Notes: generated from the sequence alone by a model not told the origin. Counted from the first letter of the stretch, positions 7,126-57,579 are shown. The stretch is DNA of 64,000 nucleotides from Alphaproteobacteria bacterium UBA6178 (GCA_002422205.1 DITS01000009.1:124769-188768), one strand, 5' to 3'. Numbers and translations are program-made.

Positions 7126-7200
7126 GGCCCCTTCGTCTAAGGGTTAGGACACCACCCTTTCACGGTGGTAATACGGGTTCGAATCCCGTAGGGGTCACCA
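7126..7200 (+). tRNA. tRNA-Glu (anticodon UUC), CCA encoded
   Basis: Cloverleaf folded by hand. Acceptor GGCCCCT/AGGGGTC, anticodon loop CTTTCAC, T arm ACGGG-TTCGAAT-CCCGT, discriminator A plus CCA. Confidence 0.9.
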
Positions 7201-12917: not shown

Positions 12918-13100
12918 ATGCATAGTGACATAATGACCATGAAGGAAGTCGCAGACTACCTGAAGATCAATGACAAAACGGCCTATAAGCTCACAGCAGA
13001 AGGTAAAATTCCCGGTTTCAAAGTCGGTGGCGCATGGCGTTTCAAAAAAAGTGAGATTGATAGCTGGATCGCGCAGCAGGGAAAAAGGGAGGCAAAGTGA
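12918..13100 (+). CDS. Excisionase-family helix-turn-helix DNA-binding protein (leader gene of the type I R-M operon)
   Basis: MTMKEVADYLKINDKTAYKLTAEGKIPGFKVGGAWRFKKSEIDSWI matches the MerR/excisionase-type HTH_17 pattern. Its stop overlaps the hsdM start. Confidence 0.7.
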   Translation: MHSDIMTMKEVADYLKINDKTAYKLTAEGKIPGFKVGGAWRFKKSEIDSWIAQQGKREAK

Positions 13101-20902: not shown

Positions 20903-21772
20903 ATGACTCAAGCAGATAAATTCCCCACCCATATCGATCTGACATGGCCAACATTGCTTGCACTTAAGCAGCTTGGCGGGTCTGGGACGATTGAGGAAAT
21001 CTTTGACAAGATGGTTGAGATCCAACAATTCCCCGAGTCAATCCAGCAAGTGCCTGCTTCGCGTGGCAACCGATCTAAGCTAGAGTATCGAGCGGCATGG
21101 GCGCGCTCTTATTTGAAACTAGTGGGCGCGGTGGAGAATAGTCAGGTGGGTGTATGGTCAATTACACCCTTAGGGGAGGCGATTGCTCAGGAAGAGTTGC
21201 TGGCCAAACTGAAAGCAGTAAATCGGGATTATTATCAGAAGCGCAAAGAGGGAAAAGAAGCGGCAGTTGCCGATCAGGATGACTCGGAAGAGTCGATAGT
21301 TGACGAGCTTCTGGATGATTGGCGTGCGCAGCTGCTGAATGTGTTAAAGGCCATTGACCCCAGTGCCTTTGAGCGTTTGTGTCAGCGCGTGTTACGTGAG
21401 TCGGGTTTTACCAAGGTTGAGGTGACGGGGCGAAGCGGTGACGGTGGTATTGATGGCGTAGGCGTATTGCGTGTGAACTTGCTATCGTTTCAAGTATCCT
21501 TTCAATGCAAGCGGTATGCTGGCAGCGTTGGGTCTGGAGTAGTGAGGGACTTTCGTGGCGCAATGATTGGGCGCTGTGACAAAGGACTGATCATCTCGAC
21601 TGGCTCATTCACGTCAGAGGCACGCAAAGAGGCCACCCGCGATGGAGCACCTGCCATTGATTTGATTGATGGGGATGAGCTGTGTGACTTACTGAAACGC
21701 CTCAAATTGGGGGTTGAGACCAAACTGATCGAGCAGGTAGAGGTTACGCCCGACTGGTTTGGGGCGTTGTAA
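20903..21772 (+). CDS. mrr: Mrr-family type IV restriction endonuclease
   Basis: Mrr_N winged-helix N-terminus. The C-terminal Mrr catalytic core has GDGGIDGVG ... QCKRY. Confidence 0.85.
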   Translation: MTQADKFPTHIDLTWPTLLALKQLGGSGTIEEIFDKMVEIQQFPESIQQVPASRGNRSKLEYRAAWARSYLKLVGAVENSQVGVWSITPLGEAIAQEELLAKLKAVNRDYYQKRKEGKEAAVADQDDSEESIVDELLDDWRAQLLNVLKAIDPSAFERLCQRVLRESGFTKVEVTGRSGDGGIDGVGVLRVNLLSFQVSFQCKRYAGSVGSGVVRDFRGAMIGRCDKGLIISTGSFTSEARKEATRDGAPAIDLIDGDELCDLLKRLKLGVETKLIEQVEVTPDWFGAL

Positions 21773-22195: not shown

Positions 22196-23581
22196 ATGAG
22201 CGCAAACAAACTTTACAGTGATGCGGATTGGCAGAGAGTATTCCTTGCTCCAGAATCTCTTAATGAGCCATACAGGACGCCAGCTAGAAAAGATTATGCA
22301 CGCATTATACATTCGCCATGCTTTAGGCGTTTGCAGGGTAAGACTCAATTGTATCAAGGCTATGAGTCTGATTTTTTTCGCAATCGACTTACTCATTCAT
22401 TGGAAGTTGCACAAATCTCTAAAGGGATAGCAATCAAGCTTAATTACGAGCATAAAGAGCTATCGTCCAACCCAATAGATCTTGATGTAGCAGAAGCGGC
22501 AGGGCTTATCCATGATTTGGGGCATCCCCCTTTTGGACATAATGGTGAGGATGCTTTAGATGAATGTATGATGAAGCTGGGGGGATTTGAAGGAAATGCC
22601 CAAACTTTGCGAATGCTTGCTCGGTTAGAGAAAAAAGAACTGAATTGCCCTAAAATAGTGAACGGCGTTGATCAAAGGTCGGGTCTCAATCTATGCTATC
22701 GTACGCTCGCTTCCGCGCTTAAATACGATAAAAAGATTCCTTTGATAAGGAATAAAAGATCAAAACCTACAAAAGGATATTACATCTCTGAAGAAGAGAT
22801 CGTATCAAAAATTAAGAGTCATGTTGCACCTTCTTTGTCGGATGATCAGGGTTTTAAAACCCTTGAATGTCAAATTATGGATTTGGCAGATGATATTGCG
22901 TACTCAACATATGACTTAGAAGATTCTTTTAAGGCAGGTTTTTTGTCGCCGTTGGGACTGTACTCTAGTGCAAGTAATAACCTTTTACTCGATAGAGTGG
23001 TGAGCACTATCAAAAGGCGCACAAAGCTAAAAATAAATAACTCGGATGTATTGAAGGTATTAGATCGGGTATTTAGCTTTTTAGGAAATATCGATTCTGT
23101 AGAGCCCATGTTTGATGCAAGCGTTATATACACAGCATCTACGCGTATTAAAGAATGTGGTTACTATCGTTCTGCGTTTACTTCTGAAAGAATTAAGCAG
23201 GCTTTAGATGGAGTGGAATTTATTTATAATCCTCAGCACCCTTGTTTGAGTGAAGTGAAATTCAATAATGAGATGTTGCTAGAAATAGAGGTGCTAAAAA
23301 ATCTTACATTTGTTTCGATGATTATGTCTCCCCGACTAAAAATTGTTGAGCATCGTGGAAAGCAAATTGTTAGGGAAATTTTTGAGGCACTTTATGATCA
23401 AGCTGATGGATATTTATTTATGCCGGATGACTTTCAACAGCTTTATCGTGATATGGAGCGCGAAGAGGACAGGGCTAGGGTCATTTGTGATTTTATAGCA
23501 GGAATGACCGATCGCTATGCATTGGAATTTTATGGCAGGCTAAAATCAGCAAGCCCAGAGAGCATCTTTAAGCCTATTTGA
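22196..23581 (+). CDS. dgt: dGTPase-family dNTP triphosphohydrolase (HD domain)
   Basis: RKDYARIIHSPCFRRLQGKTQL, FRNRLTHSLEVAQI, HDLGHPPFGH and a C-terminal DFIAGMTDRYALEFY are hallmarks of the Dgt family. The gene is visibly AT-rich compared with the core genes. Confidence 0.85.
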   Translation: MSANKLYSDADWQRVFLAPESLNEPYRTPARKDYARIIHSPCFRRLQGKTQLYQGYESDFFRNRLTHSLEVAQISKGIAIKLNYEHKELSSNPIDLDVAEAAGLIHDLGHPPFGHNGEDALDECMMKLGGFEGNAQTLRMLARLEKKELNCPKIVNGVDQRSGLNLCYRTLASALKYDKKIPLIRNKRSKPTKGYYISEEEIVSKIKSHVAPSLSDDQGFKTLECQIMDLADDIAYSTYDLEDSFKAGFLSPLGLYSSASNNLLLDRVVSTIKRRTKLKINNSDVLKVLDRVFSFLGNIDSVEPMFDASVIYTASTRIKECGYYRSAFTSERIKQALDGVEFIYNPQHPCLSEVKFNNEMLLEIEVLKNLTFVSMIMSPRLKIVEHRGKQIVREIFEALYDQADGYLFMPDDFQQLYRDMEREEDRARVICDFIAGMTDRYALEFYGRLKSASPESIFKPI

Positions 23582-23639: not shown

Positions 23640-23701
23640 GTATGGAAATAGCCGCCAAGATTATTTGGTTATAAATCATGATCATAATCCATTTCGGCGT
23701 G

Positions 23702-23945
23702 TCCCGTAGGGTCACCAAGCACACGCTCCGATAGCGTCCAAAACAATCCAAAAATCCTTGAAAATACAACGAAAATGTGGCAAAGCTTGTCCGTTAGGCC
23801 ACAGGAATGTCCAACCACATCCGAGCGATTTGTTGGTTCTTTTTGTTGGTTCCTGAGCACCAACAGAGGAAAGAACCAACAAATGAAGCTGACCAACATC
23901 CAATGTAAGAATGCTGTGTATGACCCTTCCGGCGCTGGCAACAAG
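23702..23945 (+). repeat. Long direct repeat, copy B (tRNA 3' end fragment, integrase leader, int 5' stub)
   Basis: Aligns with 7184-7427. The tRNA portion is only the last 16 nt, so there is no second functional tRNA. Confidence 0.85.
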
Positions 23946-27157: not shown

Positions 27158-27853
27158 TTAATATCCATGTTCACTCAGCACCTCATCCACTGCTTCGGCA
27201 CAGCTGGTGAATAGCGGTATGATGGCATTTATCAATGAGGCATGCTTATCTTTTTTATATGACTCATAGAAGTAGAGCAATGCCTCGTCACTTGTAAAGG
27301 ACGATGGCAAGCCATCAAAGCCCTCTGCGCGAAGCAGCGTGTCCAAGTAAGTGTAGGTTGGCCACCAGTTACTTTGTTCTGCCATAGGAATCGGGCTTTG
27401 GAGTTTTGAAAATATTAGACTCCGTATATCCTTGTCTGCAAGATATGCAACGTCATCTTCTGGATGCCAGTAATTTTCATTTTTTGTCGCTTTCTTATCC
27501 TTTGGTGCGCGGAACCCGAATTCAATCCTAGCTTCATGACATAAGGCAATGCCAGATAATTTGGGCCATGTTTTTCGGCGTAGGCGGATAGAAGAATGGA
27601 TCTGCAGGGGCGAGTCCTTCCATTGTGTCTTGTTGCACCAGTCGCTAACTACCCAGTATCTAAGCTCTTCTTTGCTTCCGCGGTTCATATCTCTGCATTT
27701 TGACTCCAGTTGCTCTGTCAATGCGCAGAGAAACTCCCCCAGATATTTGCTCTTAATAGCGTTGCCCTGCGTGATAATAGCCAGTGCAATTTTGTAATTA
27801 TCGGTGTTTTTAAATGCATTGTTGACAACCAATTCTTGTAAGACTTTGGTCAT
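27158..27853 (-). CDS. Hypothetical protein (third gene of the AAA+/nuclease operon)
   Basis: The MTKVLQEL Met overlaps the upstream stop (ATGA). 231 aa, Trp-rich, no domain recognised. AT-richer than its neighbours. Confidence 0.55.
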   Translation of the reverse strand: MTKVLQELVVNNAFKNTDNYKIALAIITQGNAIKSKYLGEFLCALTEQLESKCRDMNRGSKEELRYWVVSDWCNKTQWKDSPLQIHSSIRLRRKTWPKLSGIALCHEARIEFGFRAPKDKKATKNENYWHPEDDVAYLADKDIRSLIFSKLQSPIPMAEQSNWWPTYTYLDTLLRAEGFDGLPSSFTSDEALLYFYESYKKDKHASLINAIIPLFTSCAEAVDEVLSEHGY

Positions 27854-28533
27854 TCGATTTCCTCCTCTGGTAATTGCCATTGCAGCACAGGAAAATTCTG
27901 CGCGACATATTCTTCAAAATCACAGAGGAAGCAGCGCAGTTTTTCGGCGCGGGTTTCCTGTATGCAGCGTGTGAGCCAGCCTTTCAGACTGGGACTGCCC
28001 TCGGTGCTGTGATAAGGTAGTGTGATCCCAATCTCCGCCCATGTTTCGGTATCAATGCTGGTGGGTGTAAGGGTCTGGCCTGTCAGGAAGACCAGCTTGT
28101 ATCGCTCTGTAGCGCCGCATTGTTCCCTTAAATGATTGGAATAATCTTCGAGTTGGTTTGTTTGCTCCAATGCCCATGGTTTATTCTCGATTGCCAGCCG
28201 GAATCGATTCCGGCTTGTGAGCAATAAATCTATGCGCTGCCTACCGTTGGCTTGTACTTCGCATGTCACTTTGACTTTCTCATCGACCGGGAAAGTGTCA
28301 AAGCCGATGGTCTCAATAAAAAGCCGGAGGAGCAGATCACCCTGCCCATGTGGGCCGAGTGGGTCGAGCAGATCACGCAGGATGGTGGAGAGTGCCATTT
28401 CGTTGCGGGCTAGATACAGCGAAAACAGATTTAACCGCCTTGCGGTGGCGCGGTCAATATCGCGTTGGGCGCGTTCAACATAGGGTAGCATACCGCTTAG
28501 CTCGGCAAAGAATTGTTCCACATTTTGTTTCAT
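27850..28533 (-). CDS. PD-(D/E)XK superfamily nuclease-like protein
   Basis: N-terminal NLFSLY...E...S..LRDLLDP.GPHGQG motif. Core GRQRIDLLL ... RLAIENKPWA gives the D...E-x-K arrangement. Confidence 0.7.
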   Translation of the reverse strand: MKQNVEQFFAELSGMLPYVERAQRDIDRATARRLNLFSLYLARNEMALSTILRDLLDPLGPHGQGDLLLRLFIETIGFDTFPVDEKVKVTCEVQANGRQRIDLLLTSRNRFRLAIENKPWALEQTNQLEDYSNHLREQCGATERYKLVFLTGQTLTPTSIDTETWAEIGITLPYHSTEGSPSLKGWLTRCIQETRAEKLRCFLCDFEEYVAQNFPVLQWQLPEEEIE

Positions 28534-28545
28534 TTTTTACTCTCT

Positions 28546-30567
28546 TTACGATGCCATACGGAATCCGAGTGGTTGTTTAATGCCGTGCCGATCACGCTGC
28601 TCCTTTAGTAGCATGGATAAGAGCTCTGTTACATCCTTTTGTAAACCTAAAATGATCGCTTTGCGTTTGACGACGGCAAAATCGGCAGGTGTCAGGCATG
28701 TTAGCTGCGCGATGGCTGCCGGTGGCTTTTTGCCAAAATAATGTCGAAAGCACGCGGCAGCCTGCTCTGCTGTGAGATAGTGAAACCCGATTTTGAATGT
28801 GAAGCGACGCAGGGATGCGGTATCCAGATGCTGCATCAGATTGGTGGTGCAGGCAAAAGGCAGCGGGTGCGATTCCATCCATGTCAGCATTTCATTTACC
28901 TGTGTGACTTCCCATGAGCGCTGCGCATTCTGGCGATCCTGCAATAGGCTGTCGGCTTCATCAAACACAAGAAAAGCGTTTTCTTCTATTGCTTCACGGA
29001 ATGCGGCGGCAATGCGTTTCTCAGTATCTCCGACCCATTTAGACAGCAGGTCTGACGCACGTAATTGTTTCAGCTCCAGCCCCATTTGCTGTGCAAGGTA
29101 GCGTGTGTAGGCCGTTTTACCCGTGCCGGGAGGGCCATAAAGACACAGAGAGAAATGTTGTCCCGCATCGGGACGAATGAGCTGGGTTGTGAGATGATCG
29201 AGGTTGGTATCGGCATGGGCAAATGCAGGGTTGAATGCCACCGAATCATGGGTGGGGAGTTTGCTTTTTCCTTCCATTAGCTTATGGGCATTGGCCAGGG
29301 CAAAACGCACCTGCTCGATGCCGCCATCGGCCAGTTGGGCGGCTTTGATCGCGTGTTCGGCAATGGCGGGCGCTTCATTGAAATCGCGTGCGAGCCGGTC
29401 GATGTCCTGGGTTGAGAGCGAAAGCTTCTGCGTCTGCGCCAGACGTTGCCAGATGCGCCGACGATTCTGCTCAGGCGGTGCTTTCATTTCAATGGCAATG
29501 GTCATACGGCGCAATAATGCCGGATCGAAATGCCCGATAGCGTTGGTCGTCCAAAATGTCGGGAGTGGGTTATTTTCCAGCATGCGATTCAGGAATACTT
29601 TGGAGCCACCCATTACCATGCGGCCATAACCGGCATCGAGTAAATCCTCCATTTCGTCAAACAGCAAGAGCGCGGGTTTGGCATTGAGGAGCAGTTTGTT
29701 AGCCAGTCGCAGGGCGCGCATGCGCTCGATGCGCGTTGCCTCGTCTCCGGCCTCATCGGTTTCGGCGATGCTGTATAGGGGGGTGCGTAACCGCGCAGCA
29801 AGGGCTTTGCACAATTCGGTCTTGCCCGTGCCGGGCGGGCCGTAAAGCAGAATGTTAATGCCTTTGGCTTGGGTGCGCAGCGCGCCACTGAGCATTCGTT
29901 CGAGAAAATCACGCGCTTCGCTCAGATGTTCAAAATCGGACCATGATAAGCTGCTGCGCTGTGCTTCACCGAGCAGTCCGGCATAGGAGGATTTGCCTTT
30001 GCCGGGCTGTGAGGCAAGCCAGCTATAAATACGTGAGGATAGCTGGATGATGTCGTCAAGGTCGGATGCGCCTATTAAGCGGTCTTCATGCAGGATGCCT
30101 GTGTTTTTCAAAACGGCACTTTGTTGCAGGCTCATCATGATATCGGTGCGCTTGCATCGCAGCATCAATGCCAATGCATCCGTGGTGTTGCAACGGTGGA
30201 AGGCCATCAGAAAACCACCCATCACCGGATTGAAGCGGAGCGCCGCACCCATCGTCAGAATGGCGGCTTCGGTTTCGTTTAGTTTGAGCAGGCTGGTCAG
30301 TCTGTTCACATTGGTTTGCACCGGTGGTAATGATTGTCGTGCTGTATGCTGCAGCATAGGCGCGAGCAATTGGATAATCCGGCTGCGCTGTTCGTCGCTA
30401 TCGGTCTGTGCATTGAGATCTGCACGATTGGGTTCGGGGAGTATACTGTCGCCATCACTTTGCAGCCAGTCGATAAGGCAGCGTGCAATGCGGCTTTGTT
30501 TGGGGGCGGCGCGCAGAATATGGGTGCTGTAGCGGGCAATCAGCGTCGGGGTGGTCAGATCAATCAT
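28546..30567 (-). CDS. Tandem classical-clade AAA+ ATPase with about 235-aa N-terminal domain of unknown function
   Basis: Two modules. Each has Walker A GPPGTGKT, a Walker B (LLLFDEMED; FLVFDEADS) and SRH-like Arg pairs (DPALLRRM; DTASLRRF). A strong SD (AAGGAGAG) precedes the ATG. Confidence 0.85.
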   Translation of the reverse strand: MIDLTTPTLIARYSTHILRAAPKQSRIARCLIDWLQSDGDSILPEPNRADLNAQTDSDEQRSRIIQLLAPMLQHTARQSLPPVQTNVNRLTSLLKLNETEAAILTMGAALRFNPVMGGFLMAFHRCNTTDALALMLRCKRTDIMMSLQQSAVLKNTGILHEDRLIGASDLDDIIQLSSRIYSWLASQPGKGKSSYAGLLGEAQRSSLSWSDFEHLSEARDFLERMLSGALRTQAKGINILLYGPPGTGKTELCKALAARLRTPLYSIAETDEAGDEATRIERMRALRLANKLLLNAKPALLLFDEMEDLLDAGYGRMVMGGSKVFLNRMLENNPLPTFWTTNAIGHFDPALLRRMTIAIEMKAPPEQNRRRIWQRLAQTQKLSLSTQDIDRLARDFNEAPAIAEHAIKAAQLADGGIEQVRFALANAHKLMEGKSKLPTHDSVAFNPAFAHADTNLDHLTTQLIRPDAGQHFSLCLYGPPGTGKTAYTRYLAQQMGLELKQLRASDLLSKWVGDTEKRIAAAFREAIEENAFLVFDEADSLLQDRQNAQRSWEVTQVNEMLTWMESHPLPFACTTNLMQHLDTASLRRFTFKIGFHYLTAEQAAACFRHYFGKKPPAAIAQLTCLTPADFAVVKRKAIILGLQKDVTELLSMLLKEQRDRHGIKQPLGFRMAS

Positions 30568-30627
30568 GCTCTCTCCTTTGGGTGATGAAGTGAGTATAGG
30601 CTATGCGTGCGTCAGAATCGGACGTAT

Positions 30628-30849
30628 TCATCGCAATCTATTAAGCTGATCCCATTGTCCCGCTTCATCGATTTCTTCAGCGGTATGGAGCACAGCTATT
30701 CGGGAAGCCTCGAATTGAATCGATCTGCCCGATTTGGGCTTGGGGTTAGGGTTGGACTCGGCGGGAAAATGCTCACCGGCCCAGTTGGTCCACTGTGCTA
30801 ACGCGTTCTCAAAGCCCTTGGGGGGCTCTGTCTGTTTGCCATGACTCAT
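30628..30849 (-). CDS. Small protein carrying the conserved MSHGKQTEPPKGFENALAQWTNWAGEHFP N-terminal module
   Basis: Start at the MSHGK Met within ORF 30628..30882. The first 29 codons and the upstream DNA are identical to those of the 507-aa gene starting at 34362. Confidence 0.45.
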   Translation of the reverse strand: MSHGKQTEPPKGFENALAQWTNWAGEHFPAESNPNPKPKSGRSIQFEASRIAVLHTAEEIDEAGQWDQLNRLR

Positions 30850-31127
30850 TTGCACCACGCTTGCGCAATGAACCACTCTCACCGAACTGACGTTTTTCGT
30901 TTTTTTGCTTGCGTGTTTCGGATGGGTTACAGGTTTTGGGGGAGGGGTATGAGAGGCGGGAAGGGTGCGCTGAGCGCGGATTTGGGAGCTGGAAGCATAG
31001 CGCTAAAATAGTTAAGAATTAGTTAGCTTCCAAATATCTTCACAAAAGCTTCATACTTCTCAATAGAATAGTTTGTTAGAAATTTCTCACCTTCGCACAC
31101 AAAAACATGGGAGAGTGTTATGGGAGA
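30762..31127. repeat. Divergent promoter / 5' cassette, copy 1 (complete)
   Basis: The left part matches 34275-34417 (minus-gene N-terminus and leader). The right part (30901-31127) matches 31842-32068 (leader, GGGAGAG SD and the ATGGGAGA start of plus genes). Contains TTCACA-N19-TAGAAT (31039-31069). Confidence 0.8.
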
Positions 31128-31401
31128 CGCAACGGCAAAACATATTCCGACGGATATAGCAGAAGCGGCAAGGGAAGCAGGGCGACCCGTTCAGTTAGCG
31201 CAGGCAAGTGGTAGAGCTGCACCGCGCACCGGTAGGGAATCGTGGGAGATCAGTGTTGAAACATCGTCCGATTTCACACTTCTGATTGACCAGTTTAACT
31301 GCGCTTTTGGTAATGCCCCTGCACAACTAGATAAGGATAGACAGCGGCAGCCAAATGCCAATTTTCCTACTGCAGATGTATATCTGCAATCGCGTTATTA
31401 A
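31120..31401 (+). CDS. Hypothetical protein expressed from cassette copy 1
   Basis: Begins at the conserved SD-ATGGGAGA. 93 aa. Overlaps the next ORF in another frame. Confidence 0.4.
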   Translation: MGDATAKHIPTDIAEAAREAGRPVQLAQASGRAAPRTGRESWEISVETSSDFTLLIDQFNCAFGNAPAQLDKDRQRQPNANFPTADVYLQSRY

Positions 31402-31789
31402 AGTAAGTCAACAACGTGATCCACAACTGATCGCATTATATGAAAGAATAGCTGAGAGATTAGGTGGGAAAGCTAATCAAGCTAAATCACTGCACGATGT
31501 GATTGCCGAGCATGCTTATAATAACAGGCCTAATTATCCATTTAACGGCCAAAATGGAAAGTTGTCGAATGAGTTAGCGTTTCATGCCGGTGTACGCGAT
31601 GTGCTGATTAATCCCAAGATGCAAGGAGAGAAACTTGTTCCTGACTCATCTGTGACGCCAGAGATTATGGCTGAAATTACGCGTGACTGCTATCGGCCTG
31701 GTTATAAAAGCGATACTCAGGTTTGTTATGGAGCGGGTATGGAGTTGGGTAAGCAAATTAAGCTAAATAGTGGAAGAGCAAAAAACTGA
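31355..31789 (+). CDS. Hypothetical protein (possibly the frameshifted continuation of 31120..31401)
   Basis: 144-aa ORF overlapping the previous one by 47 nt in the +1 frame. No obvious SD of its own. Confidence 0.35.
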   Translation: MPIFLLQMYICNRVIKVSQQRDPQLIALYERIAERLGGKANQAKSLHDVIAEHAYNNRPNYPFNGQNGKLSNELAFHAGVRDVLINPKMQGEKLVPDSSVTPEIMAEITRDCYRPGYKSDTQVCYGAGMELGKQIKLNSGRAKN

Positions 31790-31841
31790 GACGCATCCGC
31801 GCTGTACCTATGCAATGCATTTTTTTAGCAGACAGATGTTT

Positions 31842-32068
31842 TTTTTGCTTGCGCTGTTTCGGTTGGGTTACAGGTTTTTGGGGGAGGGTGCTGAAGGACG
31901 CGAGGGGTGCGCTGAGTGCGGATTTGGGTGGCGGGAGCATAGCGCTAAAATGGTTAAGAAATAGTTAGCTTCCAAATATCTTCACAAAAGCTTCATACTT
32001 CTCAATAGAATAGTTTGTTAGAACATTCTGACCTTCGCACACAAAAACATGGGAGAGTGTTATGGGAG
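31842..32068. repeat. Divergent promoter cassette, copy 2 (plus-side half only)
   Basis: Near-identical to 30901-31127. The minus-side gene is absent. Confidence 0.8.
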
Positions 32069-32841
32069 AAACGGTAGCCAAGAGTCCTCATCAAGATGTG
32101 ATTGATGGCCTTATCAAAATAGCAAAAGAAGATAAAACTCTTGATTTTATTCGCTTCAAATGCTCGGTTGGTTTAATGGGACATGATTTAAAAAAGGGCA
32201 TTAATTCTATAGCTGGTGCTGCCCCTGTAACTCCTAATGATACGGGTATGTTATGCCGAGCTATTATGAAGTTAGATGTACCAAACGACCCCTATAGTTT
32301 TTATGATCTGTATCTTCTAGAATTAAAAAAAGCGTTCCCTATTACCAAAGAAGCGGTGCAAGAAGCGATTTATCAACGCGCTACACGTGGCCGTGATAAT
32401 GAAGGCGCTTTTAATGTGGAAGTAGTTGGAACTGATGGAAAGAAATATACTATACCCGTAGCGGCGGGTCCGGCTAGTGCCTATGATGCCGGGTATGTGC
32501 AGGAGCATGAAAACCTGACGCAAAAAAACGCGACTCCACCGAGCAAACCCGATGCAACAAATCGCTTTTACCATGATGTGATGCAGTTATTTGCTTCACA
32601 GCCTCAGGATAAGCAAGAAGTTATCGCTCGTGAGATAGGTAATGCTTGCTTTAATAACGCAATACCCAGCTTGGGGGCTGGTAAAACCAGTGTGGGGACT
32701 TGCGCTGTAGCAGGTAGGCTGCAGCGTCGATTGGATGGGGCAAGTAATGCATCGGCTGCAGACACGGGTCGTTTGTCTCCCGATAGCGCTGGTGGTATAC
32801 CACCAAAGGCAAGCACTGTGATTGTACTCAATCCGCAATAA
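32062..32841 (+). CDS. Hypothetical protein expressed from cassette copy 2
   Basis: Same SD and MGE start as 31120, but an unrelated 259-aa body. No domain recognised. Confidence 0.55.
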   Translation: MGETVAKSPHQDVIDGLIKIAKEDKTLDFIRFKCSVGLMGHDLKKGINSIAGAAPVTPNDTGMLCRAIMKLDVPNDPYSFYDLYLLELKKAFPITKEAVQEAIYQRATRGRDNEGAFNVEVVGTDGKKYTIPVAAGPASAYDAGYVQEHENLTQKNATPPSKPDATNRFYHDVMQLFASQPQDKQEVIAREIGNACFNNAIPSLGAGKTSVGTCAVAGRLQRRLDGASNASAADTGRLSPDSAGGIPPKASTVIVLNPQ

Positions 32842-34362
32842 CTAGGCTCTTCCAATATTGGTATCGGCCGAAGCTATTTTTTGTGGAATATTAGGGCTTT
32901 TGTTTTCGTCTACGTTTGCTTCCTCACCACCCGTTACTGCTACCTTATCATTGGATTGAGTAGACGCTGATGTTGAAAGCTTTGCAATAGATATATCCAT
33001 TAAGGGTACAATGATATCCTGTGTCTTTGGGCTTTCATTAACTGTTAAAACTGAAAGCTCTTTCGCTTTAGCACTTTCCTTAGTATCGCTAATTGCATTG
33101 CTATAAGAATTCATTATCCGCGTTTGTTTTTCAGCTGAATCTACGTCTGCTGCAGGCTTTTCTTCCAAAGATTTTATGGCTGCTTCAGCTCTGGGATTTA
33201 ATGATTGAGCTTTTCGTTCATTGTTTGCCTGACTTTTGTCATTTTCTTGCTTTTGCCTTTTAAGCTGCTCCTGCTTTTGCACTAAACCTTCTTCTTTTTT
33301 GGCGGATTCTTTTTTGGCTTCTTCAACCTTCTTTTCTGCCTCCGCCTTTTCTTCGGGGGTTGAGTTGGGGTCATTGCGTACTTTCTCGCGATTGCGTTCA
33401 GCATCGATGATTTTCAGCTGAGCGGCAGCGATTTCGGCTTTGCCTTCTTCTTCGGTTTTTTTCTTTGCTTCTTCTATTTGCTTTTGTTCGGCTTGTAGCT
33501 GTTGCTGTTTCTCTTCGACTTCCTTTTTTGCCAGCGCCTGCGTTTCGGCCAGTACTCGGCGGGCTTCGGCAAGGCGGCGTTCGGCATCTTCGATGTCACG
33601 CTCAGAGGCACCGCGCTTGCGTAATTCCTCGACGGTGGCTTCGGCGGCGTCGACATCGTTTTGCGCCATGTCGGTGCGGATGAGGGCGCGGTCGACGCGG
33701 TCTTCGGTTTGATTGAGCTTTTCTTCCAGTGCCGCACGCTCGTTGCGGAAGGGTGAAAGGTCGATGCCGTATTTGCCAGCCAGTTGATCGATGGCGGCGT
33801 TATTCGCTGCGGCGCGTTGCTCCAGCGCAGCCCATTGCGCGTCATAGGCTTCCATTTTCGCCTGAAATATTTCCGTGGCGGTGGCACCGAGCTGGAAACC
33901 GGCTTCCTGTTTGACTGCAGTAGCGTTGGCCATGCTCATCTCAATCACGCTTTTGGCACTGGCTACTGCCATTTTGATCTCACTCGGGGTGCGGGCTTGT
34001 GCTGCCAGATCGCGCACACTGCGCAATGCGCTGAGCGAGCCCTCCAGCCCCGTGGCGGCATTATTGGCGGCGTCGGCGGATTCCTCGCGTAGCGCTTCAT
34101 CAATGATTTCGGCCATTAAGCGTTCGAGCTCATTTATCTGGGCATCCAAAGTGGTGAGGGTTTCGTCACGCATGGCTTGCATCAAGGCTTCGCTGGTGCG
34201 GTCTTCACCCAATATTTCGGTAATGCTTGCGAGTCGTGCTTCTGAGTCAGAGGATAGAGCAGGCGCAGGTTCAACGGGAAAATGCTCACCGGCCCAGTTG
34301 GTCCACTGTGCTAACGCGTTCTCAAAGCCCTTGGGGGGCTCTGTCTGTTTGCCATGACTCAT
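32842..34362 (-). CDS. Large coiled-coil, E/K/A-rich protein with the conserved MSHGKQTEPP... N-terminal module
   Basis: Start at MSHGK within ORF 32842..34380. Long heptad-like E/K/Q-rich central region. S/N/T-rich C-terminal tail. Confidence 0.7.
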   Translation of the reverse strand: MSHGKQTEPPKGFENALAQWTNWAGEHFPVEPAPALSSDSEARLASITEILGEDRTSEALMQAMRDETLTTLDAQINELERLMAEIIDEALREESADAANNAATGLEGSLSALRSVRDLAAQARTPSEIKMAVASAKSVIEMSMANATAVKQEAGFQLGATATEIFQAKMEAYDAQWAALEQRAAANNAAIDQLAGKYGIDLSPFRNERAALEEKLNQTEDRVDRALIRTDMAQNDVDAAEATVEELRKRGASERDIEDAERRLAEARRVLAETQALAKKEVEEKQQQLQAEQKQIEEAKKKTEEEGKAEIAAAQLKIIDAERNREKVRNDPNSTPEEKAEAEKKVEEAKKESAKKEEGLVQKQEQLKRQKQENDKSQANNERKAQSLNPRAEAAIKSLEEKPAADVDSAEKQTRIMNSYSNAISDTKESAKAKELSVLTVNESPKTQDIIVPLMDISIAKLSTSASTQSNDKVAVTGGEEANVDENKSPNIPQKIASADTNIGRA

Positions 34363-34417
34363 TTGCACCTCCCTGTGCAATGAACCACTCTCACCGAACT
34401 GACGTTTTTCGTTTTTT
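34275..34417. repeat. Divergent promoter cassette, copy 3 (minus-side half)
   Basis: Identical to 30762-30857 and then near-identical for about 50 more nt. Confidence 0.8.
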
Positions 34418-34966
34418 GTCTTTTTGCTTGCCCCGTCCCTGTTTTGTTACAGGTTTTAGGGAGGTTTTCTCTTGTTTTTCTCGCTTTTCGCTTCGTGTTT
34501 ATTGTTATGATTCTATTTTGTGTTTCGGTGGTTTACGCCAACTATCCACAATGCTATTTGAACATGAAAGGGTAAATAAATAGTTAAAGTTTTAGCGATT
34601 TGCTGGGGAAATTGTGAATGTCATGAAAGGTTCATAAAAGGGGTGGTTAGTGGCTAGGGGCTTGGTGGCTAGTAGGGATACTGGCGTCGAGGCCAGTATA
34701 CGGTTTTAAGGGGGGCTAAGTTATTTAGTGTCATTCCCGCTTCACGCCGCCTCCTGAGATCCTGCGCTCTTGCTTTGCAAGCCGCAGGATGACGCTATTC
34801 TTTTAATTCCCGCCTTCCCGTCTTCGTTTCGTTCCTGCATCCTAGCGCGAGTGTCACAAAAGCTTCATAAAAATCAGGCGGATTTGTGGGGGAATTGGGG
34901 TATACTGGGGTGGCTGGGAAAATAAAGACTGTGGGCGCATGGGCGCTTGCATGATGGGTTTGAATT

Positions 34967-36592
34967 ATGCCGTTTGATGGAGAGATGGATCAGCAGGATG
35001 GGGCGCAGGGCCACCGGCCTCAGCATGCCGTGATTTCTGAGATTCCGCAGCGCACACCGGTGGAAGTGCGGCTGGGGCTGGCATTACTGCCGGCGCGTTA
35101 TTTGCTGCGTGGGTTGTTTAAAACCCTTACCGATTCGTCGCTGCCCGAGGCTATGCAGAAAATTCTGGTAGACCCGTGGCGCAATCCGATTTTTGCCGAG
35201 CCGCTATATCAAAAGCTGCAAAGCAAATTGTCGCAGGTGGATGCGCATGATTTGTTTATGGGCAAAATTCCCGATGATGCGTATGAGATTGCGCATCAGC
35301 TGCATGATTCGCCCAAGGCGCAGGCGCTGCTGAAAGAGTTTCATCAGATTTTGCGGCCATGGGATGCCAAAGGCGTGGCGCATAATATGCTGCAATATGC
35401 GATTGCCGATCGTGATAAAGCCACCGATCTGCTGACGCTGACGGAAGAGTCTAAGGGGCGCATTCGCGGGGCGATGGCTGAGCCATTATTTGAATCGCTC
35501 TATGATCATTCGCTGGGGATGGGTAGTCTGGCGATGACATTTGCCATTCGCAAACGCGTGCGCAATGATATTCAGAATTTATACACCGAGGCGGTGGGCT
35601 ATGAGATGGGCAAGCCTGCCAGCCGCGTGACGATGGAAGATATTTTCAACAGTGACAACACCATTATTCAATCGACGGTGCATAATTACCGCAATAAATT
35701 TGCGCAGCGGCTGGGCATTAGTGTGCTGCCGTTTTTGCGTAATGTGCCGGGCTTTCGTAGCTGGCAATTTGGCGAGGCGGCGATTGGCCTGTGGGGCGCG
35801 ATGTGGGTGTTTGATGTGTGGGGACGGCAACCCACCAATCTGGAAATGCTCAGCGATTTTGTGAATGACAAGCTGAATCCGAAATTCGGGATTAGCGACC
35901 CGATCCGCACCGCCGATATTATCAATCTGTATCAGCGTTATGCGACGAAATTTAAGCCGGAAGTGGCATTTAAAAGCGTGCTCAGCTCCGATATCGGCGA
36001 GGGGCATGTGTGGGCGCAGAGCGAGAAAATCTATCAGCGTATCGCCGATCTGATGAATGATACCTATAGCTATAAACATACGGTGCGGCTGGATGAGGAG
36101 ACCGGATTGCCGGTGAATCTGGCGAATTTTACGGTGCCGAAATTTATTTATCTGATGGGGCATGACATGATCAACCCTTATCAGCCTGACTGGAGCATGG
36201 CCTATGTGCAGATGGCGGATAAATATGGCATGGATGTGGTGCGGCAGGTGCGCAAAGAGCAGCAAAGCGGCATGCAGTTGTCGGAAATACTCAAGCGTTA
36301 CCCGGTGGATTTGAACCCGCCGCGTACCGGACGCAACAGCCTGTCTGCGGCACCGGTGGTGGTGGATGAGCCGAAAGCGGACGTCGCAAAGGCTGAACAG
36401 GTGTCAGTGCCGGTTGCGGCCAATGACGACGAGCGGGAAGCGGACGTGGTAAAAGCAGTGCGCATGACGGGTAAAGTGCCGGTGCCGGTGCCCGCTAATG
36501 ACCCTGAGCCACACACGCAGGTGGATGCAGCCAGCGCCGCCAAACATGGCACAACGCAGCACACGAAAACACACGCCAACCTCAGCGCATAA
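34967..36592 (+). CDS. Hypothetical protein (ORFan, 541 aa)
   Basis: Long ORF with core-like codon usage. The C-terminus has a degenerate repeat (KADVAKAEQVSVPVAAND / EADVVKAVRMTGKVPVPVPAND). No domain recognised. Confidence 0.65.
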   Translation: MPFDGEMDQQDGAQGHRPQHAVISEIPQRTPVEVRLGLALLPARYLLRGLFKTLTDSSLPEAMQKILVDPWRNPIFAEPLYQKLQSKLSQVDAHDLFMGKIPDDAYEIAHQLHDSPKAQALLKEFHQILRPWDAKGVAHNMLQYAIADRDKATDLLTLTEESKGRIRGAMAEPLFESLYDHSLGMGSLAMTFAIRKRVRNDIQNLYTEAVGYEMGKPASRVTMEDIFNSDNTIIQSTVHNYRNKFAQRLGISVLPFLRNVPGFRSWQFGEAAIGLWGAMWVFDVWGRQPTNLEMLSDFVNDKLNPKFGISDPIRTADIINLYQRYATKFKPEVAFKSVLSSDIGEGHVWAQSEKIYQRIADLMNDTYSYKHTVRLDEETGLPVNLANFTVPKFIYLMGHDMINPYQPDWSMAYVQMADKYGMDVVRQVRKEQQSGMQLSEILKRYPVDLNPPRTGRNSLSAAPVVVDEPKADVAKAEQVSVPVAANDDEREADVVKAVRMTGKVPVPVPANDPEPHTQVDAASAAKHGTTQHTKTHANLSA

Positions 36593-36630
36593 TCGCTTGC
36601 CTTCTGCTGTGTGAGTGCCACACTGCGGGC

Positions 36631-37944
36631 ATGAGTAATGCTTATCATATTCTGCGTCGGCGCCCTGCTCAGGATGTGCATGCGCTGGCCCCTGAGCTGG
36701 AAGCGCTGGCGCGGCAGCTGATTGCGTCGGGCCGTTTGCGCATCAATGCCGATCATGCGCGTAATTATGTGATTTATTCCGGTTCGTCTTTCGATAAAAG
36801 TTTCAGCAAGCGCGAGCTGAGTACACCGGCATTTATGGACGGGGTGCGGCGGGTGATTGCTGATACCTTGCCAGGATCAGCAGGGGCGCAGGGGGTGGAG
36901 GATGTGCTGTTGCGGCTGCAGCAGGATTTGAAGCGCGGCGGTGAGATTTCGCATGAGCGGGAATTGCAGATTGCGCGGCTGCTGGTGCAATCGACGCATC
37001 CGGTGGTGCTGATGCTGGCGATGCTGGAGGGTGTCGATATTTTTGTGTCATACTCGCATAATGTGGCGGATTTGATGGGGGTGCATTTTTGGGAATGCAT
37101 TGGCCAAAGCAGCGGGCTGCAAAGCATCAGCGGCGATGGCACCGCGGTGTATGTCTCGTGCGGGGGGGACCCGTTTATTACCGAGGATAAACATAAGACC
37201 TATACCACCGACGGGTTTGGCGCCTTGTCGCGGCTGATGGTGATTGCGGCGCAGGAGTTGGGGCATTTTGCTGATATTGTGCGCGATGCGCAAGGTAGGC
37301 AGGTGGGGCGGCATAGCGCGTCGCTGGCCCCGTTGCGCGCGCGGGTGATGATGCAGCAAGCACGCAAGCGCGACATGGAACAGATGCGTGTGTTATATGC
37401 GCAGTTGAGTCAGTTGCAGGTGGGGGCGGTGGTGAAGAAGGAGCGGGCACAGGCTTTTGCGCGCAAGCACCGGCCCGGCTCGCCGGTGCTGCTGTGGCAT
37501 GCGTTGCAAGTGAGGCTGGCGGTGCGGCAGCTGAAGCAACGCGCGGCCAAGGCGGGGGCGGCGATGGTGACGCATTTTCCGACGGATTTGGTGAGCGAGG
37601 ATAGCCAAGGGTTTGCTACGCAGCTGAGCGAATTTGTGCGTGATATGGCGTTTAATCTGGCGCCGGATGCGGAGGTGTATAAGCGCCCCGATCCGGTGGA
37701 GGAGGAAGCCATTGCGGTGATTGAGGCGCTAGCGCGGGTGCCGCAACAGGCGGTGAAATGGGGACATCATCACACACAGCTGGCATGGCCGAATTTGTAT
37801 AAGGCGTATTATCAGGTGGTGATTCCGTCGTGCATTGCGGCGTATGAGCAGATTAGCGGCAAGCGCTATCATTTTACGCTGTCGCCGCCGCCGCGCAAAG
37901 GGGTGATAACCCAGCTGAAATTGCTGAGGAAAAAGCGGTCGTAA
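36631..37944 (+). CDS. Hypothetical protein (ORFan, 437 aa)
   Basis: Long ORF; no domain recognised. Confidence 0.65.
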   Translation: MSNAYHILRRRPAQDVHALAPELEALARQLIASGRLRINADHARNYVIYSGSSFDKSFSKRELSTPAFMDGVRRVIADTLPGSAGAQGVEDVLLRLQQDLKRGGEISHERELQIARLLVQSTHPVVLMLAMLEGVDIFVSYSHNVADLMGVHFWECIGQSSGLQSISGDGTAVYVSCGGDPFITEDKHKTYTTDGFGALSRLMVIAAQELGHFADIVRDAQGRQVGRHSASLAPLRARVMMQQARKRDMEQMRVLYAQLSQLQVGAVVKKERAQAFARKHRPGSPVLLWHALQVRLAVRQLKQRAAKAGAAMVTHFPTDLVSEDSQGFATQLSEFVRDMAFNLAPDAEVYKRPDPVEEEAIAVIEALARVPQQAVKWGHHHTQLAWPNLYKAYYQVVIPSCIAAYEQISGKRYHFTLSPPPRKGVITQLKLLRKKRS

Positions 37945-38034
37945 GGGCGCAATCTTCATACAATCGTCACATAATGCAAAAGCAGAAATGCTATACTGCT
38001 AGTAAGTGATAATTTGTAGGATACAGGCCCTTTA

Positions 38035-39888
38035 ATGGCAGCTGAGTTAACATCAGAAGAAATTGCAGCAGGTGGCTATACCCCCGATCAGGTAGCCGCG
38101 ATTAATGCTGACCGCCGTAAAAAGGCGCAGGAGAATGCGCCTGGTGGCTCGGGTGGTTTCAGCTTTGGTGATCTGCTCACCTATGGTTTTTGGGGTATGT
38201 TGGGTGCCGCTATTGTAGGCGGGCTTGGTCTTGGTGGTTTATTTGGTGATGGCTTTGGCGTGATGGTTAAAGGCTTGATCAATAAAATTGCTGAAGCTTT
38301 TAACATGGATCCGATATTTGAAAAGCCGGTGGAAGAATTTTTAACCGCTACCGCAGCGGACCCTGCGAAATTTAAGGAATTGCTGCAAAATGAAACGTTC
38401 GGTGCGGGCTTGTCGGAAGAATCGGCAGCGATACTGGCAACGGAAGGACCGCAGTTGCTCAAGGCGCTGAAAGAGGCAGGCGTTGATTTAGAGAAACTGC
38501 AAAGCGATGGATTGTCAGTGATTCAGAAGGAAGGTGTGTTGAACAAACTGGCGCGCAGTAATTTATCGCTGCCAGTGAAGCAAACTTTGTTTTATGAATC
38601 GCTGGTTAAGCAGAATATATCGCCCAAGCTGGCGCGTGAGCTGGCGAATCAGACCGAGGCGCTGTTGCTGGTGGTCAATGATGGCACCAAGGGTATTGAT
38701 CTGGAAGCGCTGATCCGTGAAGGGGTGGGGGCGCTGAAATCGAAAAGCATGCTGGCCATGCTGCAAGGCAGCCCTGAGCTTGCCAAATTGATGAGTGTAT
38801 TACCGGAAGCGAGCCAATCAGCAATTTTGGCGGCGGCGGGTTATGAGAATGTTAAGGATATGCTGGTATGGTTAAACCAGCCGTCGGAGATTGCCGGTGC
38901 GAGCAATATGCAGGTGCTCACGCAATCCATCAAAAACATGAATTTATCGGAGGCAGATATGAAAGAATTTGAAGCGTTAGTGAGCAAGGTTGGTACCGCG
39001 TTTTCGTCGGGCAATGCCGCGCAGATTAAAGAAGCTGTGAATGATGTATTCAATTCGCCCTTGCTGAAGAATGAGAAGATATTGCCGGAATTCGCGGCGG
39101 CACTGCAAAAGATGAGCCTGCCTGCGCTGACGCCTGAGCAGATGAAAACGCTGACCGAGGCAACGGGTAAAAATGCGGCTGAAGTGACCCAGATGATGGC
39201 AGATGCGAAAGCGGTGTTTGCGAATACGGGTAATTTACGTATATTCCGTGATTTGACCTTGTCGGTAGGGCCACAGGTTTCCAATGCAGTGGTGGATATG
39301 GTGATGCCCAGTGGCGGCGGAAAAGTGGATATGGGTGCCGTGGCGGCGTTGGCCGGGCAGCATATTGATAAGTTGGCTCCTTTGGCTAAGTTGGATGTGA
39401 GTGCAATCCGTGATCCGCAAACAAGAGCGCTGGCGGAAGCAAGTTTACACAATTTGGGTGCTTTGGTTAGTTTTGCGGAAAAGCTGACACCTCAGAATCG
39501 TGAAAAGCTGAGTAACGTTTTAGCAAGTAGAGCAGACAGCAAAGACTCTTCACTGGGTTCTTTGCTTGCGACAGCAACTCAACTATTGCCGATATTACAA
39601 GCTAATCCTGAAGGCTTTCATGTTTTTGCAGACAGTCTTAAATTAGATGCATATGCGACTTTATCAGATAAATCAAAAGAACAGGTCGCTGGCATTAAGC
39701 AAGCGATTGATTTTCTAAAAATGGCTATTCCTAAGCCCCAAAAACAAAGCGCTGTTGATTCCCCCGATAAAGCACAGCTTGCAGCGGCAGATGCGGTGAA
39801 GGATTTGGGCAGTAAAGTGGCATTGAGTGATTCAGGTGCGCCAGCTTTTGTGCCTTCCGGCGGTGGTTCGGCTCCGGCGATTGGTTAG
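38035..39888 (+). CDS. Hypothetical helical protein with an N-terminal Gly-rich hydrophobic segment (617 aa)
   Basis: GFWGMLGAAIVGGLGLGGLFGDGFGVMV near the N-terminus. The rest is Ala/Leu/Lys-rich and helical-looking. Confidence 0.65.
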   Translation: MAAELTSEEIAAGGYTPDQVAAINADRRKKAQENAPGGSGGFSFGDLLTYGFWGMLGAAIVGGLGLGGLFGDGFGVMVKGLINKIAEAFNMDPIFEKPVEEFLTATAADPAKFKELLQNETFGAGLSEESAAILATEGPQLLKALKEAGVDLEKLQSDGLSVIQKEGVLNKLARSNLSLPVKQTLFYESLVKQNISPKLARELANQTEALLLVVNDGTKGIDLEALIREGVGALKSKSMLAMLQGSPELAKLMSVLPEASQSAILAAAGYENVKDMLVWLNQPSEIAGASNMQVLTQSIKNMNLSEADMKEFEALVSKVGTAFSSGNAAQIKEAVNDVFNSPLLKNEKILPEFAAALQKMSLPALTPEQMKTLTEATGKNAAEVTQMMADAKAVFANTGNLRIFRDLTLSVGPQVSNAVVDMVMPSGGGKVDMGAVAALAGQHIDKLAPLAKLDVSAIRDPQTRALAEASLHNLGALVSFAEKLTPQNREKLSNVLASRADSKDSSLGSLLATATQLLPILQANPEGFHVFADSLKLDAYATLSDKSKEQVAGIKQAIDFLKMAIPKPQKQSAVDSPDKAQLAAADAVKDLGSKVALSDSGAPAFVPSGGGSAPAIG

Positions 39889-43697: not shown

Positions 43698-43739
43698 GCT
43701 GGTTGCTGGTTGCTGGTTGCTGGTTGCTAGTTTCTAGTT
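43698..43739. repeat. Tandem heptamer repeat (gctggtt x4, gctagtt, tctagtt)
   Basis: Six consecutive 7-nt units starting directly after the ndk stop codon. Confidence 0.9.
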
Positions 43740-43740
43740 T

Positions 43741-43890
43741 AGGCCAGACCCCGTCATGCGACGGGGTGACAGTTTCAACTGGCCTCTAGTCCATAGACTC
43801 TGACTCACCATAGCTGTCATGCCGTCTTTATGACGGCATCCGGCTTGCTTAAGTCCAGACCCCGTCATTCGACCGGGTGACGGGTTAAGA
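43741..43890. repeat. Cluster of REP-like palindromic units between convergent ndk and purN
   Basis: Hairpins ccccgtc-atgc-gacgggg (43749-43766) and atgccgtc-tttat-gacggcat (43819-43839). A second ccagaccccgtcat unit lies at 43855-43883. Confidence 0.6.
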
Positions 43891-56662: not shown

Positions 56663-56682
56663 CGCGATGAAGAGCGAAGTGA

Positions 56683-57438: not shown

Positions 57439-57579
57439 GAATAGTTTCTCCCCGAATTATTCATAATGTCTGTAATGTTATTCCTATCAACGAGATAGGC
57501 TGTTTAGTGTAGCATAAATATGCATCTTTTAAAAGTTAGAAGCAGATGTTCAATCTCATAGCATCATAAGCGTAAAAAG

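Follow-up and report, generated by a model that had tools for sequence, protein, structure and literature searches.

Several described systems join a constant upstream or N-terminal segment to variable genes. Polymorphic toxin systems pair a constant start with a remainder that varies. In the terminal reassortment of type III effectors, reportedly described by Stavrinides, Ma and Guttman in 2006 together with orphan effector termini (cited in PMC3136466), a common promoter and N-terminal segment are combined with unrelated C-termini, and short open reading frames (ORFs) that hold only an N-terminus occur there as well. Putative mobile promoters have been defined as sequences with 80% identity or more across a minimum of 50 nucleotides (nt) within positions -150 to -50 of unrelated coding sequences of one genome (Matus-Garcia, Nijveen, van Passel, 2012; PMC3575422). 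The present analysis concerns a stretch of 64,000 nt from Alphaproteobacteria bacterium UBA6178 (GCA_002422205.1 DITS01000009.1:124769-188768; hereafter the window, whose coordinates are used throughout), in which a repeated two-way control region heads unrelated genes. The reading considered most probable (probability about 0.6) is that the locus holds three paralogous copies (A, B, and C) of one such region, formed by local duplication and gene conversion and accompanied by promoter re-use and by a gene stub.

The locus resembled putative mobile promoters in its similar upstream regions, its unrelated downstream genes and the lack of an attached known mobile element. Identity between A and B over 30942-31127 covered positions -150 to -50 of the start codons at 31120 and 32062, and the genes downstream of these copies (two ORFs of 93 and 144 amino acids (aa) versus a gene of 259 aa) were non-paralogous. 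Unlike putative mobile promoters, the unit was two-way and took in 29 codons of the leftward gene and 8 nt of the rightward one, its copies were tandem and local, and its promoter carried an identifiable regulon box. A common promoter and N-terminal segment, unrelated C-termini and an N-terminus-only short ORF were also shared with type III effector reassortment; however, the window contained no type III system and the locus no hrp- or tts-type box, a single truncated carrier was present, and the N-terminus appeared to be inherited within one family. The locus shared a constant start and variable remainder with polymorphic toxin systems, but it had no trafficking or toxin domain, immunity gene or array of alternative C-terminal cassettes.

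Repeat anatomy and rightward genes

Repeats were identified with a repeat finder and by direct reading of positions 30000-35400, and identities were taken from pairwise alignments. The copies and their parts were located as follows.

30762-31127, copy A: two-way control region; left part matches C, right part matches B
30762-30945, minus strand, left part of copy A: first 29 codons (30762-30849) and leader of the leftward gene
31109-31127, plus strand, shared translation start: GGGAGAG, 4 nt, ATGGGAGA; identical in A and B; homology ends here
31842-32069, plus strand, copy B: lies 942 nt further right than A; right half only, leftward gene start absent
34275-34966, copy C: diverged full intergenic region, 3513 nt to the right of A; 34275-34461 is 5' coding segment and leader

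All repeats reported in an earlier, sequence-only reading of this DNA were present. Copies A and B were identical at 98 of 101 positions over 31027-31127, a segment that spans the rightward box, -10 hexamer, leader, Shine-Dalgarno sequence and ATGGGAGA, at 72 of 85 positions over 30942-31026 and, single-base indels aside, at 40 of 41 positions over 30901-30941. To the left of 30901 their identity was at random level, and to the right similarity stopped 8 nt into both ORFs, past ATGGGAGA. Between A and C, positions 30762-30849 and 34275-34362, which span the 29 codons, were identical throughout (88/88), while the leader (30850-30910) matched at 57 of 61 positions, the next stretch at 25 of 35, and sequence beyond approximately 30945 at random level. 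The homology of A and C broke off abruptly at 30761/30762. Copy C had been described as a left half; its left-half match held, but C proved to be a diverged full-length intergenic copy rather than a left half only. The 15-mer CACAAAAGCTTCATA occurred exactly three times in the window, at 31041, 31983 and 34855 (expectation 0.16 at up to two mismatches), and a fourth, degenerate copy was found at 34621-34636. The occurrence at 34855 is the exact counterpart of a string previously noticed near 34857, upstream of the gene that starts at 34967. The candidate promoter TTCACA-N19-TAGAAT, which had been assigned to both halves of the module, was present in the right half only and hence in copies A and B only.

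The genes directly flanking these copies were the following.

30628-30849, minus strand: 73-aa ORF, 29 codons as in the 506-aa gene followed by 44 unique codons
31120-31401 and 31355-31789, plus strand: 93-aa and 144-aa ORFs, overlapping by 47 nt in different frames
32062-32841, plus strand: 259-aa orphan gene, headed by copy B and convergent with the 506-aa gene
32842-34362, minus strand: 506-aa all-helical protein, intact owner of the 29-residue N-terminus

No Shine-Dalgarno sequence preceded 31355, and the 93/144-aa pair is probably a single gene of approximately 223 aa split by a frameshift. Neither ORF matched a family in Pfam, NCBIfam, PADLOC or PHROGs. The 259-aa protein had no family match and no PDB sequence match, and its AlphaFold2 (AF2) model, with a predicted local distance difference test (pLDDT) score of 46, was unusable. 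When 5.8 billion proteins were searched by word index, the 73-, 506- and 259-aa proteins each retrieved nothing but themselves. Consistent with the earlier statement that the plus-strand bodies are unrelated, a BLASTP comparison of the 144-aa and 259-aa proteins yielded an E-value of 0.67, and the fused 93+144-aa sequence had a Smith-Waterman z-score of about -1.3 with the 259-aa protein, relative to shuffled sequences. Hidden homology among the rightward proteins and the partner genes of homologues was also considered and was rejected; the best z-score (4.0) came from a gappy alignment with a 617-aa protein. The description of the module as a repeated two-way expression cassette stood, in that its rightward half gives promoter, ribosome-binding site and start codon to unrelated bodies. 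Since a leftward stub (see below) is combined with an apparent rightward frameshift, unit A appears to be decaying on both sides.

Origin of the shared 29-residue N-terminus

The 29-codon start common to the 73-aa and the long minus-strand proteins was recovered as previously described, with the length of the latter corrected from 507 to 506 aa, counted from the shared ATG. The two proteins had 31 of 34 N-terminal residues in common and nothing else. An exhaustive HMMER search with the first 300 residues of the 506-aa protein against 1.84 billion representative proteins retrieved, in addition to the 73-aa ORF, three distant homologues (P0004, P0005 and P0006) with 25-30% identity to the 506-aa protein. 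A C-terminal (A/S/G)PN motif was common to all four family proteins. P0006 aligned from residue 1, starting with MSQGKHTGPDFGFP where the protein in the window starts with MSHGKQTEPPKGFE, and the DNA just upstream of its gene kept the window leader GAGAGTGGTTCATT..GGGAGG..CAAGTGAGT; a leader GAGAGTGGTTCATTG..GGGAGG..CAA(A/G)TGAGT was common to the window and locus L126. Within the same collection of representative proteins, only the two minus-strand ORFs of the window (P0001 and P0002) carried the module itself, and P0006 was the one full-length homologue with a related N-terminus. Because the module was confined to two ORFs and a related start occurred on a full-length homologue, it is, as judged from these alignments, the ordinary, vertically inherited start of one small gene family and not a tag that moves between families.

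This outcome ran counter to the idea of a secretion or adaptor tag, formed by the 29 residues and joined to interchangeable cargo. The search for further members that had been suggested along with that idea found P0001 and P0002 only, so that the idea largely failed on uniqueness, and one of the carriers, the 73-aa ORF, had a damaged Shine-Dalgarno sequence. Two of the few substitutions that separate the leader of copy A from that of copy C changed AGGGAGGTG to AGCGTGGTG and thereby destroyed this element: the good arrangement in copy C (AGGGAGGTGCAA-ATG) corresponded to AGCGTGGTGCAA-ATG in copy A. The 44-codon tail of the ORF had no homologue in any search made, and a run of defence genes started 60 nt beyond its stop codon. 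With its unique tail, its damaged Shine-Dalgarno sequence and a homology break right beside the defence island, the 73-aa ORF most probably represents a truncated copy or remnant of the 506-aa gene, and it would be inert.

An AF2 model of the 506-aa protein, calculated from the four family sequences, was all-helical. Its core (residues 170-385) was predicted with confidence and its ends at low confidence, which included the N-terminal 56 residues and is consistent with disorder of the latter. A Foldseek comparison of the model with the PDB gave nothing below E = 0.1, the fold being a generic helical bundle. Neither the 73-aa nor the 506-aa protein matched Pfam, NCBIfam, PADLOC or PHROGs. The exact 36-mer of the module was absent from species-representative genomes (a collection from which the window's own genome was missing or in which it was masked), a metagenome scan with the 506-aa protein gave no match (the window's own genome being outside this collection or masked in it), and a plasmid search with P0006 was likewise negative. 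The DNA around P0006 (L126/L127), the closest homologue with a similar N-terminus, was plasmid-like or resembled an integrative and conjugative element, with a MobA/MobL relaxase, TraG, an H-NS-like protein, integrases, a KlcB-like protein and DUF2958, and the region had weak DNA similarity to plasmids of Azospirillum and Roseivivax.

An orphan gene of 229-265 aa with an upstream Pho-like box adjoined the helical family gene and its CtrA-type box (boxes described below) in three of four loci, at the following positions.

L129, 3925-4030
L131, 11318-11408
window, 31980-32062

The helical gene and its orphan partner may form a conserved two-gene module in which the partner has diverged beyond recognition (pairwise z-scores of at most 2.5).

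Candidate promoters and their recurrence in the lineage

Candidate promoter elements were assigned on both sides of the control region.

30994-31026, minus strand, leftward promoter of A: cTAA-N7-TTAAC at 31011-31026, 11-nt spacer, -10-like TATGCT at 30994-30999
31953-31968, CtrA-type box of B
34572-34587, minus strand, CtrA-type box of C: TTAA-N7-TTtAC
31038-31082, plus strand, rightward promoter of A: tandem repeat CTTCACAAAAG/CTTCATA at 31038-31055; TAGAAT at 31064-31069 (+8 nt); TAGAAA at 31077-31082 (+21 nt)
31980-31997, plus strand, box of the rightward promoter of B; TAGAAT at 32006-32011; TAGAAC at 32019-32024; Shine-Dalgarno sequence at 32051-32057; ATG at 32062
34621-34636 (three mismatches) and 34854-34869 (exact), boxes of C; TATACT at 34901-34906

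Alignment of the upstream regions of all family members revealed one invariant block, represented by TTAACTATTTATTAAC in L126, TTAACCATTGCTTAAC in L129, TTAACCGTTCATTAAC in L131, and cTAACTAATTCTTAAC, cTAACTATTTCTTAAC and TTAACTATTTATTtAC in window copies A, B and C, respectively. A perfect TTAA-N7-TTAAC was present upstream of the three homologues P0004-P0006, in L126 (the locus of P0006), L129 and L131. Neither strand of these loci, each 5-15 kb long, held a second perfect match, and the three window copies each had a CtrA-type box with one mismatch. A TAnnnT hexamer followed the box at 10-11 nt everywhere but in copy C, which had TCAAAT at 10 nt and TAGCAT at 15 nt. The consensus for binding of CtrA is TTAA-N7-TTAA, placed at -35 (PMC11264516), and CtrA sites also occur on mobile DNA such as phage (PMC9437464). 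The leftward promoter resembles CtrA-dependent promoters in its TTAA-N7-TTAA(C) over -35 and in its alphaproteobacterial host, whereas the mismatch in each window copy and a family without a known cell-cycle or polar function set it apart. CtrA is the factor inferred to act at the leftward box; the ctrA gene lies outside the window.

The rightward box consisted of two 11-nt direct repeats (TGTCACAAAAG/CTTCATAAAAC) of the form TTCACA-N5-TTCATA, and PHO boxes are built in this way (PMC4415409, PMC3131613, PMC8601176). It matched the degenerate PHO consensus NTKTMAYHWWHYNKTMAY (PMC8601176), which is unspecific in the window, at 17 of 18 positions in one box of copy C (C2) and at 16 of 18 in A, in B and in the other box of C (C1). 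A metagenome scan for the box returned 44 loci, approximately 20 of which represented one unrelated conserved gene; the window's own sequence, contig L001 included, was not among them. In other organisms, PstS-type genes (L090, L116) and a PHO4/PiT gene (L109) had the exact 22-mer in the intergenic DNA directly upstream, and canonical Pho boxes preceded the genes that adjoin P0004 (CTGTCATATTTCTGTCAT) and P0005. A PhoB-like response regulator is the most likely controller of the box. PhoB-dependent promoters share with it the two 11-nt direct repeats, a TGTCA/TTCA core, an A-rich spacer, a position upstream of a -10 hexamer without a -35 hexamer, and the identical sequence, which in other bacteria stands upstream of pstS and pit genes. 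However, the half-sites here were mostly TTCA rather than TGTCA, the regulon consisted mostly of orphan proteins, and the -10 hexamer lay 20-21 nt past the 16-mer (approximately 22-23 nt past the classical 18-bp box). This spacing is about one helical turn longer than in E. coli phoA, where box and -10 hexamer are 10 nt apart. An Rfam search gave no family, folding of the leaders was not better than that of shuffled sequence (z-score of -2 or weaker), and a generic promoter and terminator scan performed at chance level.

Beyond the locus, TCACAAAAGCTTCATA recurred in approximately 23 places in metagenome-assembled genomes (MAGs) named 'Rickettsiales bacterium' or 'Alphaproteobacteria bacterium', followed at 20-21 nt by a -10 hexamer. 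The genome scan behind this count required the 20-21-nt geometry and returned 45 loci, approximately 23 of them from MAGs with these names, several of which were matched two or three times. Most of the -10 hexamers in the genome loci were TATAGT, TATAAT or TAGAAT, often preceded by TGG. A further 13 near-matches were present in the 178 kb of those loci, against approximately 1.4 expected, and nine of the 13 had the same geometry. The metagenome search did not require any geometry. In five of its loci (L118, L121, L091, L104, L082) tetranucleotide composition correlated with that of the window core at 0.86-0.93, a sixth (L122) being too short to score; in all six, TAnnnT stood 20-21 nt past the box, and four of these contigs held a second, independent near-match with the same geometry. 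Because the string is enriched across the lineage at a fixed position relative to -10 hexamers, it is, on this comparative evidence, genuinely a promoter element and belongs to a large regulon of the lineage, in agreement with its earlier interpretation as a shared regulatory element. Downstream proteins lacked a Pfam family in nine of ten cases tested and in all five of a set tested earlier, and many had Gly/Ala-rich hydrophobic segments. Several of these proteins formed conserved families across MAGs (for example L172/L175, L134/L153, L170/L176, L082/L091/L133, with promoter loci L133-L176 among MAGs).

Formation of the copies, genomic setting and implications

In the proposed explanation, the leftward half would be the native promoter, leader and start of the approximately 500-aa helical family, with a CtrA-type box at -35, a -10 hexamer 10-11 nt further on and a long leader. 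The rightward half would be an activator-type promoter composed of the tandem 11-nt repeat, a -10 hexamer, a short leader, a Shine-Dalgarno sequence and ATGGGAGA. Local segmental duplication would have produced the copies, and gene conversion in their still-similar non-coding parts would keep homogenising them. Copies A and C would then be old paralogues whose proximal 150 nt were recently homogenised, which would account for 88/88 identity beside random-level divergence, while the right halves of A and B would be younger or better maintained. The uneven identity (88/88 and 98/101 next to about 85%, then random) fits conversion tracts between older paralogues. The leftward gene would have remained intact at C only, having disappeared from A, either right at the island junction or close by, as well as from B, and the rightward promoter would have been re-used for unrelated orphans (93/144 aa, 259 aa and a 541-aa operon), which would place these in the regulon of the lineage. 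The promoters would presumably fire, and the order of the duplication events is a proposal. As direct repeats, A, B and C would be able to mediate deletions of 942 and 3513 bp.

Several observations weigh against this explanation. The unrelated rightward bodies require additional replacement events that are not reconstructable, the frameshift reading of the 93/144-aa pair is not backed by a homologue, and the 73-aa ORF remains an open frame. Both factor assignments (CtrA, PhoB-like) are sequence-based predictions, and the degenerate PHO consensus matched eight times in the window where 3.2 matches were expected. The boxes in the window also lack the canonical geometry: A and B have a weak TAGAAA or TAGAAC at +21 and TAGAAT at +8, and in C, TATACT stands at +31, more distant by one helical turn. 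Matches of the box next to phosphate genes came from other organisms, no pstS gene of this lineage being among the sequences available. Copy counts cover the window and the searched collections, in which the window's own genome was outside or masked.

Among other explanations, the copies might be recent, unselected duplication leftovers in a decaying island, with silent promoters and small ORFs at A and B. A truncated second integrase (23709-23945), the truncated leftward and apparently frameshifted rightward genes at A, and the weakness of the canonically placed -10 hexamers of A and B agree with such debris. It is nevertheless considered rather unlikely, as conservation between A and B was best exactly over box, -10 hexamer, leader, Shine-Dalgarno sequence and ATG, compared with 85% in the flanking 85 nt, the 259-aa ORF is intact, a chance open frame of that length being unlikely at 44% G+C, and the box class is, by its recurrence, clearly functional elsewhere in the lineage. 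A polymorphic effector or toxin locus, or terminal reassortment, in which promoter and 29-residue start form a constant expression and secretion module recombined onto varied cargo, the 73-aa ORF being either a short effector or an orphan terminus, would explain why a common promoter, leader and N-terminus switch sharply to unrelated sequence. The low-confidence first 56 residues of the 506-aa protein, since disorder is frequent in secretion signals, the abundance of orphan proteins in the neighbourhood and box regulon, as in effector sets, and the presence of a DUF2748 protein are also in line with it. However, the module had two carriers only, one of them with a damaged Shine-Dalgarno sequence and a homologue-less tail, it was found nowhere else among the representative proteins or in the metagenome scan, and the full-length homologue with a related N-terminus implies vertical inheritance in a single family. 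Searches of the 64-kb window against Pfam, NCBIfam, PADLOC, PHROGs and PDB sequences revealed neither a secretion system nor any domain of the trafficking, toxin or immunity kind, and the supposed variable bodies were an all-helical protein and a 44-residue unique tail without a toxin or immunity family. An effector or toxin locus, as originally suggested, is therefore judged improbable.

An autonomous or mobilisable small element (a miniature inverted-repeat transposable element, a Correia-like element or a 'mobile promoter') that carries outward promoters and inserts before genes would fit the approximately 230 nt at 91% identity before unrelated genes, an arrangement that agrees with the published operational definition (PMC3575422). 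Searches at the ends of A, B and C revealed neither terminal inverted repeats nor target-site duplications, and no inverted repeat paired the ends. Megablast of 30600-34900 against plasmid and phage collections gave no match, and neither these collections nor the 44 and 45 box loci held a copy beyond the 16-27-nt box itself. All copies, moreover, lay within 4 kb in the same orientation, and one end of the unit was inside a coding sequence. Because terminal inverted repeats and copies outside these 4 kb are lacking, the locus is not regarded as a mobile element, and an origin of this kind is thought very improbable. Short repeats can also be mis-joined in draft and metagenome assemblies, which raises the question of collapsed or chimeric repeats. 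An independent JGI metagenome contig (L001, 7551 bp) showed the same arrangement across all three copies with one mismatch, so that a one-off assembly artefact is unlikely as the source of the repeats; as the copies also differ from one another, and thus are not collapsed, and ORFs cross the junctions cleanly, this explanation is given hardly any credence.

The host is a deep-branching alphaproteobacterium, whose PurM was at most 64% identical to that of any species representative (61-63% for the top-ranked loci). An integrase and a defence island come after a tRNA-Glu gene (7126-7200), and the last approximately 17 nt of the tRNA together with the 5' region of the integrase (7126-7427) recurred at 23694-23945 with 84-97% identity, the second integrase copy being truncated (23709-23945). 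This recurrence of tRNA end and integrase start at about 23.7 kb indicates two tandem integrative islands, of which the second is decayed. A third attachment-site (att) copy marking the right end of the island was searched for and was not found. Neighbouring genes were assigned as follows.

7365-30567, defence genes, including HsdM (13097-14671) and HsdR (17571-20660) of a type I restriction-modification system, Mrr (20903-21772) and an HD/dGTPase-like protein (22196-23581)
Second-island defence genes: ResIII helicase, WYL regulator and a PD-(D/E)XK, PDC-S26-like protein (27850-28533)
28546-30567, minus strand: double AAA+ ATPase, IetA-like, first gene of the defence-type run beside the 73-aa ORF
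34967-39888, plus strand, genes to the right of copy C: 541-aa protein, DUF2748 protein (36631-37944) and 617-aa protein

The core genes ExoD and CobD lie beyond the 617-aa gene. PDB sequence searches with the 259-, 541-, 437- and 617-aa proteins gave no credible match, whereas the DUF2748 protein was assigned to PF10871 with E = 1.5e-108. The MAG 'Alphaproteobacteria bacterium UBA3002' (L156; DUF2748 at 81-1340) encoded homologues of the 541-aa and DUF2748 proteins (44% and 51% identity) with gene order and strand unchanged and one opposite-strand ORF between them, and the 540-aa homologue in this MAG was preceded by the same box class with TATACT at 21 nt. On this gene-order evidence, the 541-aa and DUF2748 genes are taken to be native to the lineage, and the repeat locus therefore lies at the seam between island and native genes. 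DUF2748 is known mainly from Rickettsia; here, a full-length member occurred in a free-living-type genome with purine, cobalamin and polyphosphate genes, and a literature search under the family name gave no match. Elsewhere in the window, a multi-copy family of approximately 250-aa proteins was observed at 56679-59426, 61330-62094 and 63413-64000, with DNA repeats of 82-86% identity at 56.7-59.3 kb and homologues in L136, L139, L154 and L156. Two copies of a 38-nt G+C-rich hairpin-like repeat, 111 nt apart, were present in intergenic DNA at 43738-43886. The GC skew was positive throughout positions 1-64000, independent of gene orientation, and its cumulative value climbed steadily, consistent with a single replichore strand.

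In its own right, the locus offers a clean, dissectable case of promoter re-use and stub formation through local duplication and conversion. For annotation, this means that the 73-aa ORF should not be entered as a separate effector gene, and probably neither should the 93/144-aa pair. The repeat is an ordinary case of promoter re-use, and the promoter class is the part that is worth following up. PmrA boxes of Legionella and Coxiella mark effector regulons under a response regulator, and the class described here resembles them in its tandem-repeat box, its fixed distance to the -10 hexamer and its many lineage-specific proteins of unknown function. It differs in box sequence and bacterial class and in the lack of a known secretion system or host, and an effector status of its proteins is unsupported. 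As a tentative and rather speculative extension, an undescribed promoter class of the lineage (TCACAAAAGCTTCATA, 20-21 nt, TATAGT-like -10 hexamer) might mark a large regulon of fast-evolving orphan proteins in 'Rickettsiales'-labelled alphaproteobacteria, which would be an effector-type repertoire under a PhoB-like regulator; duplication of the cassette would recruit genes to it, and the helical family with its CtrA-type box would be a linked, separately timed partner. From the MAGs of an uncultured alphaproteobacterial lineage, the 16-nt motif with its fixed promoter geometry selects dozens of uncharacterised genes. If one regulator is behind the box, the motif would provide a way to define co-regulated unknown proteins in unculturable organisms from sequence data, and would allow a possible co-option of phosphate sensing to be tested.

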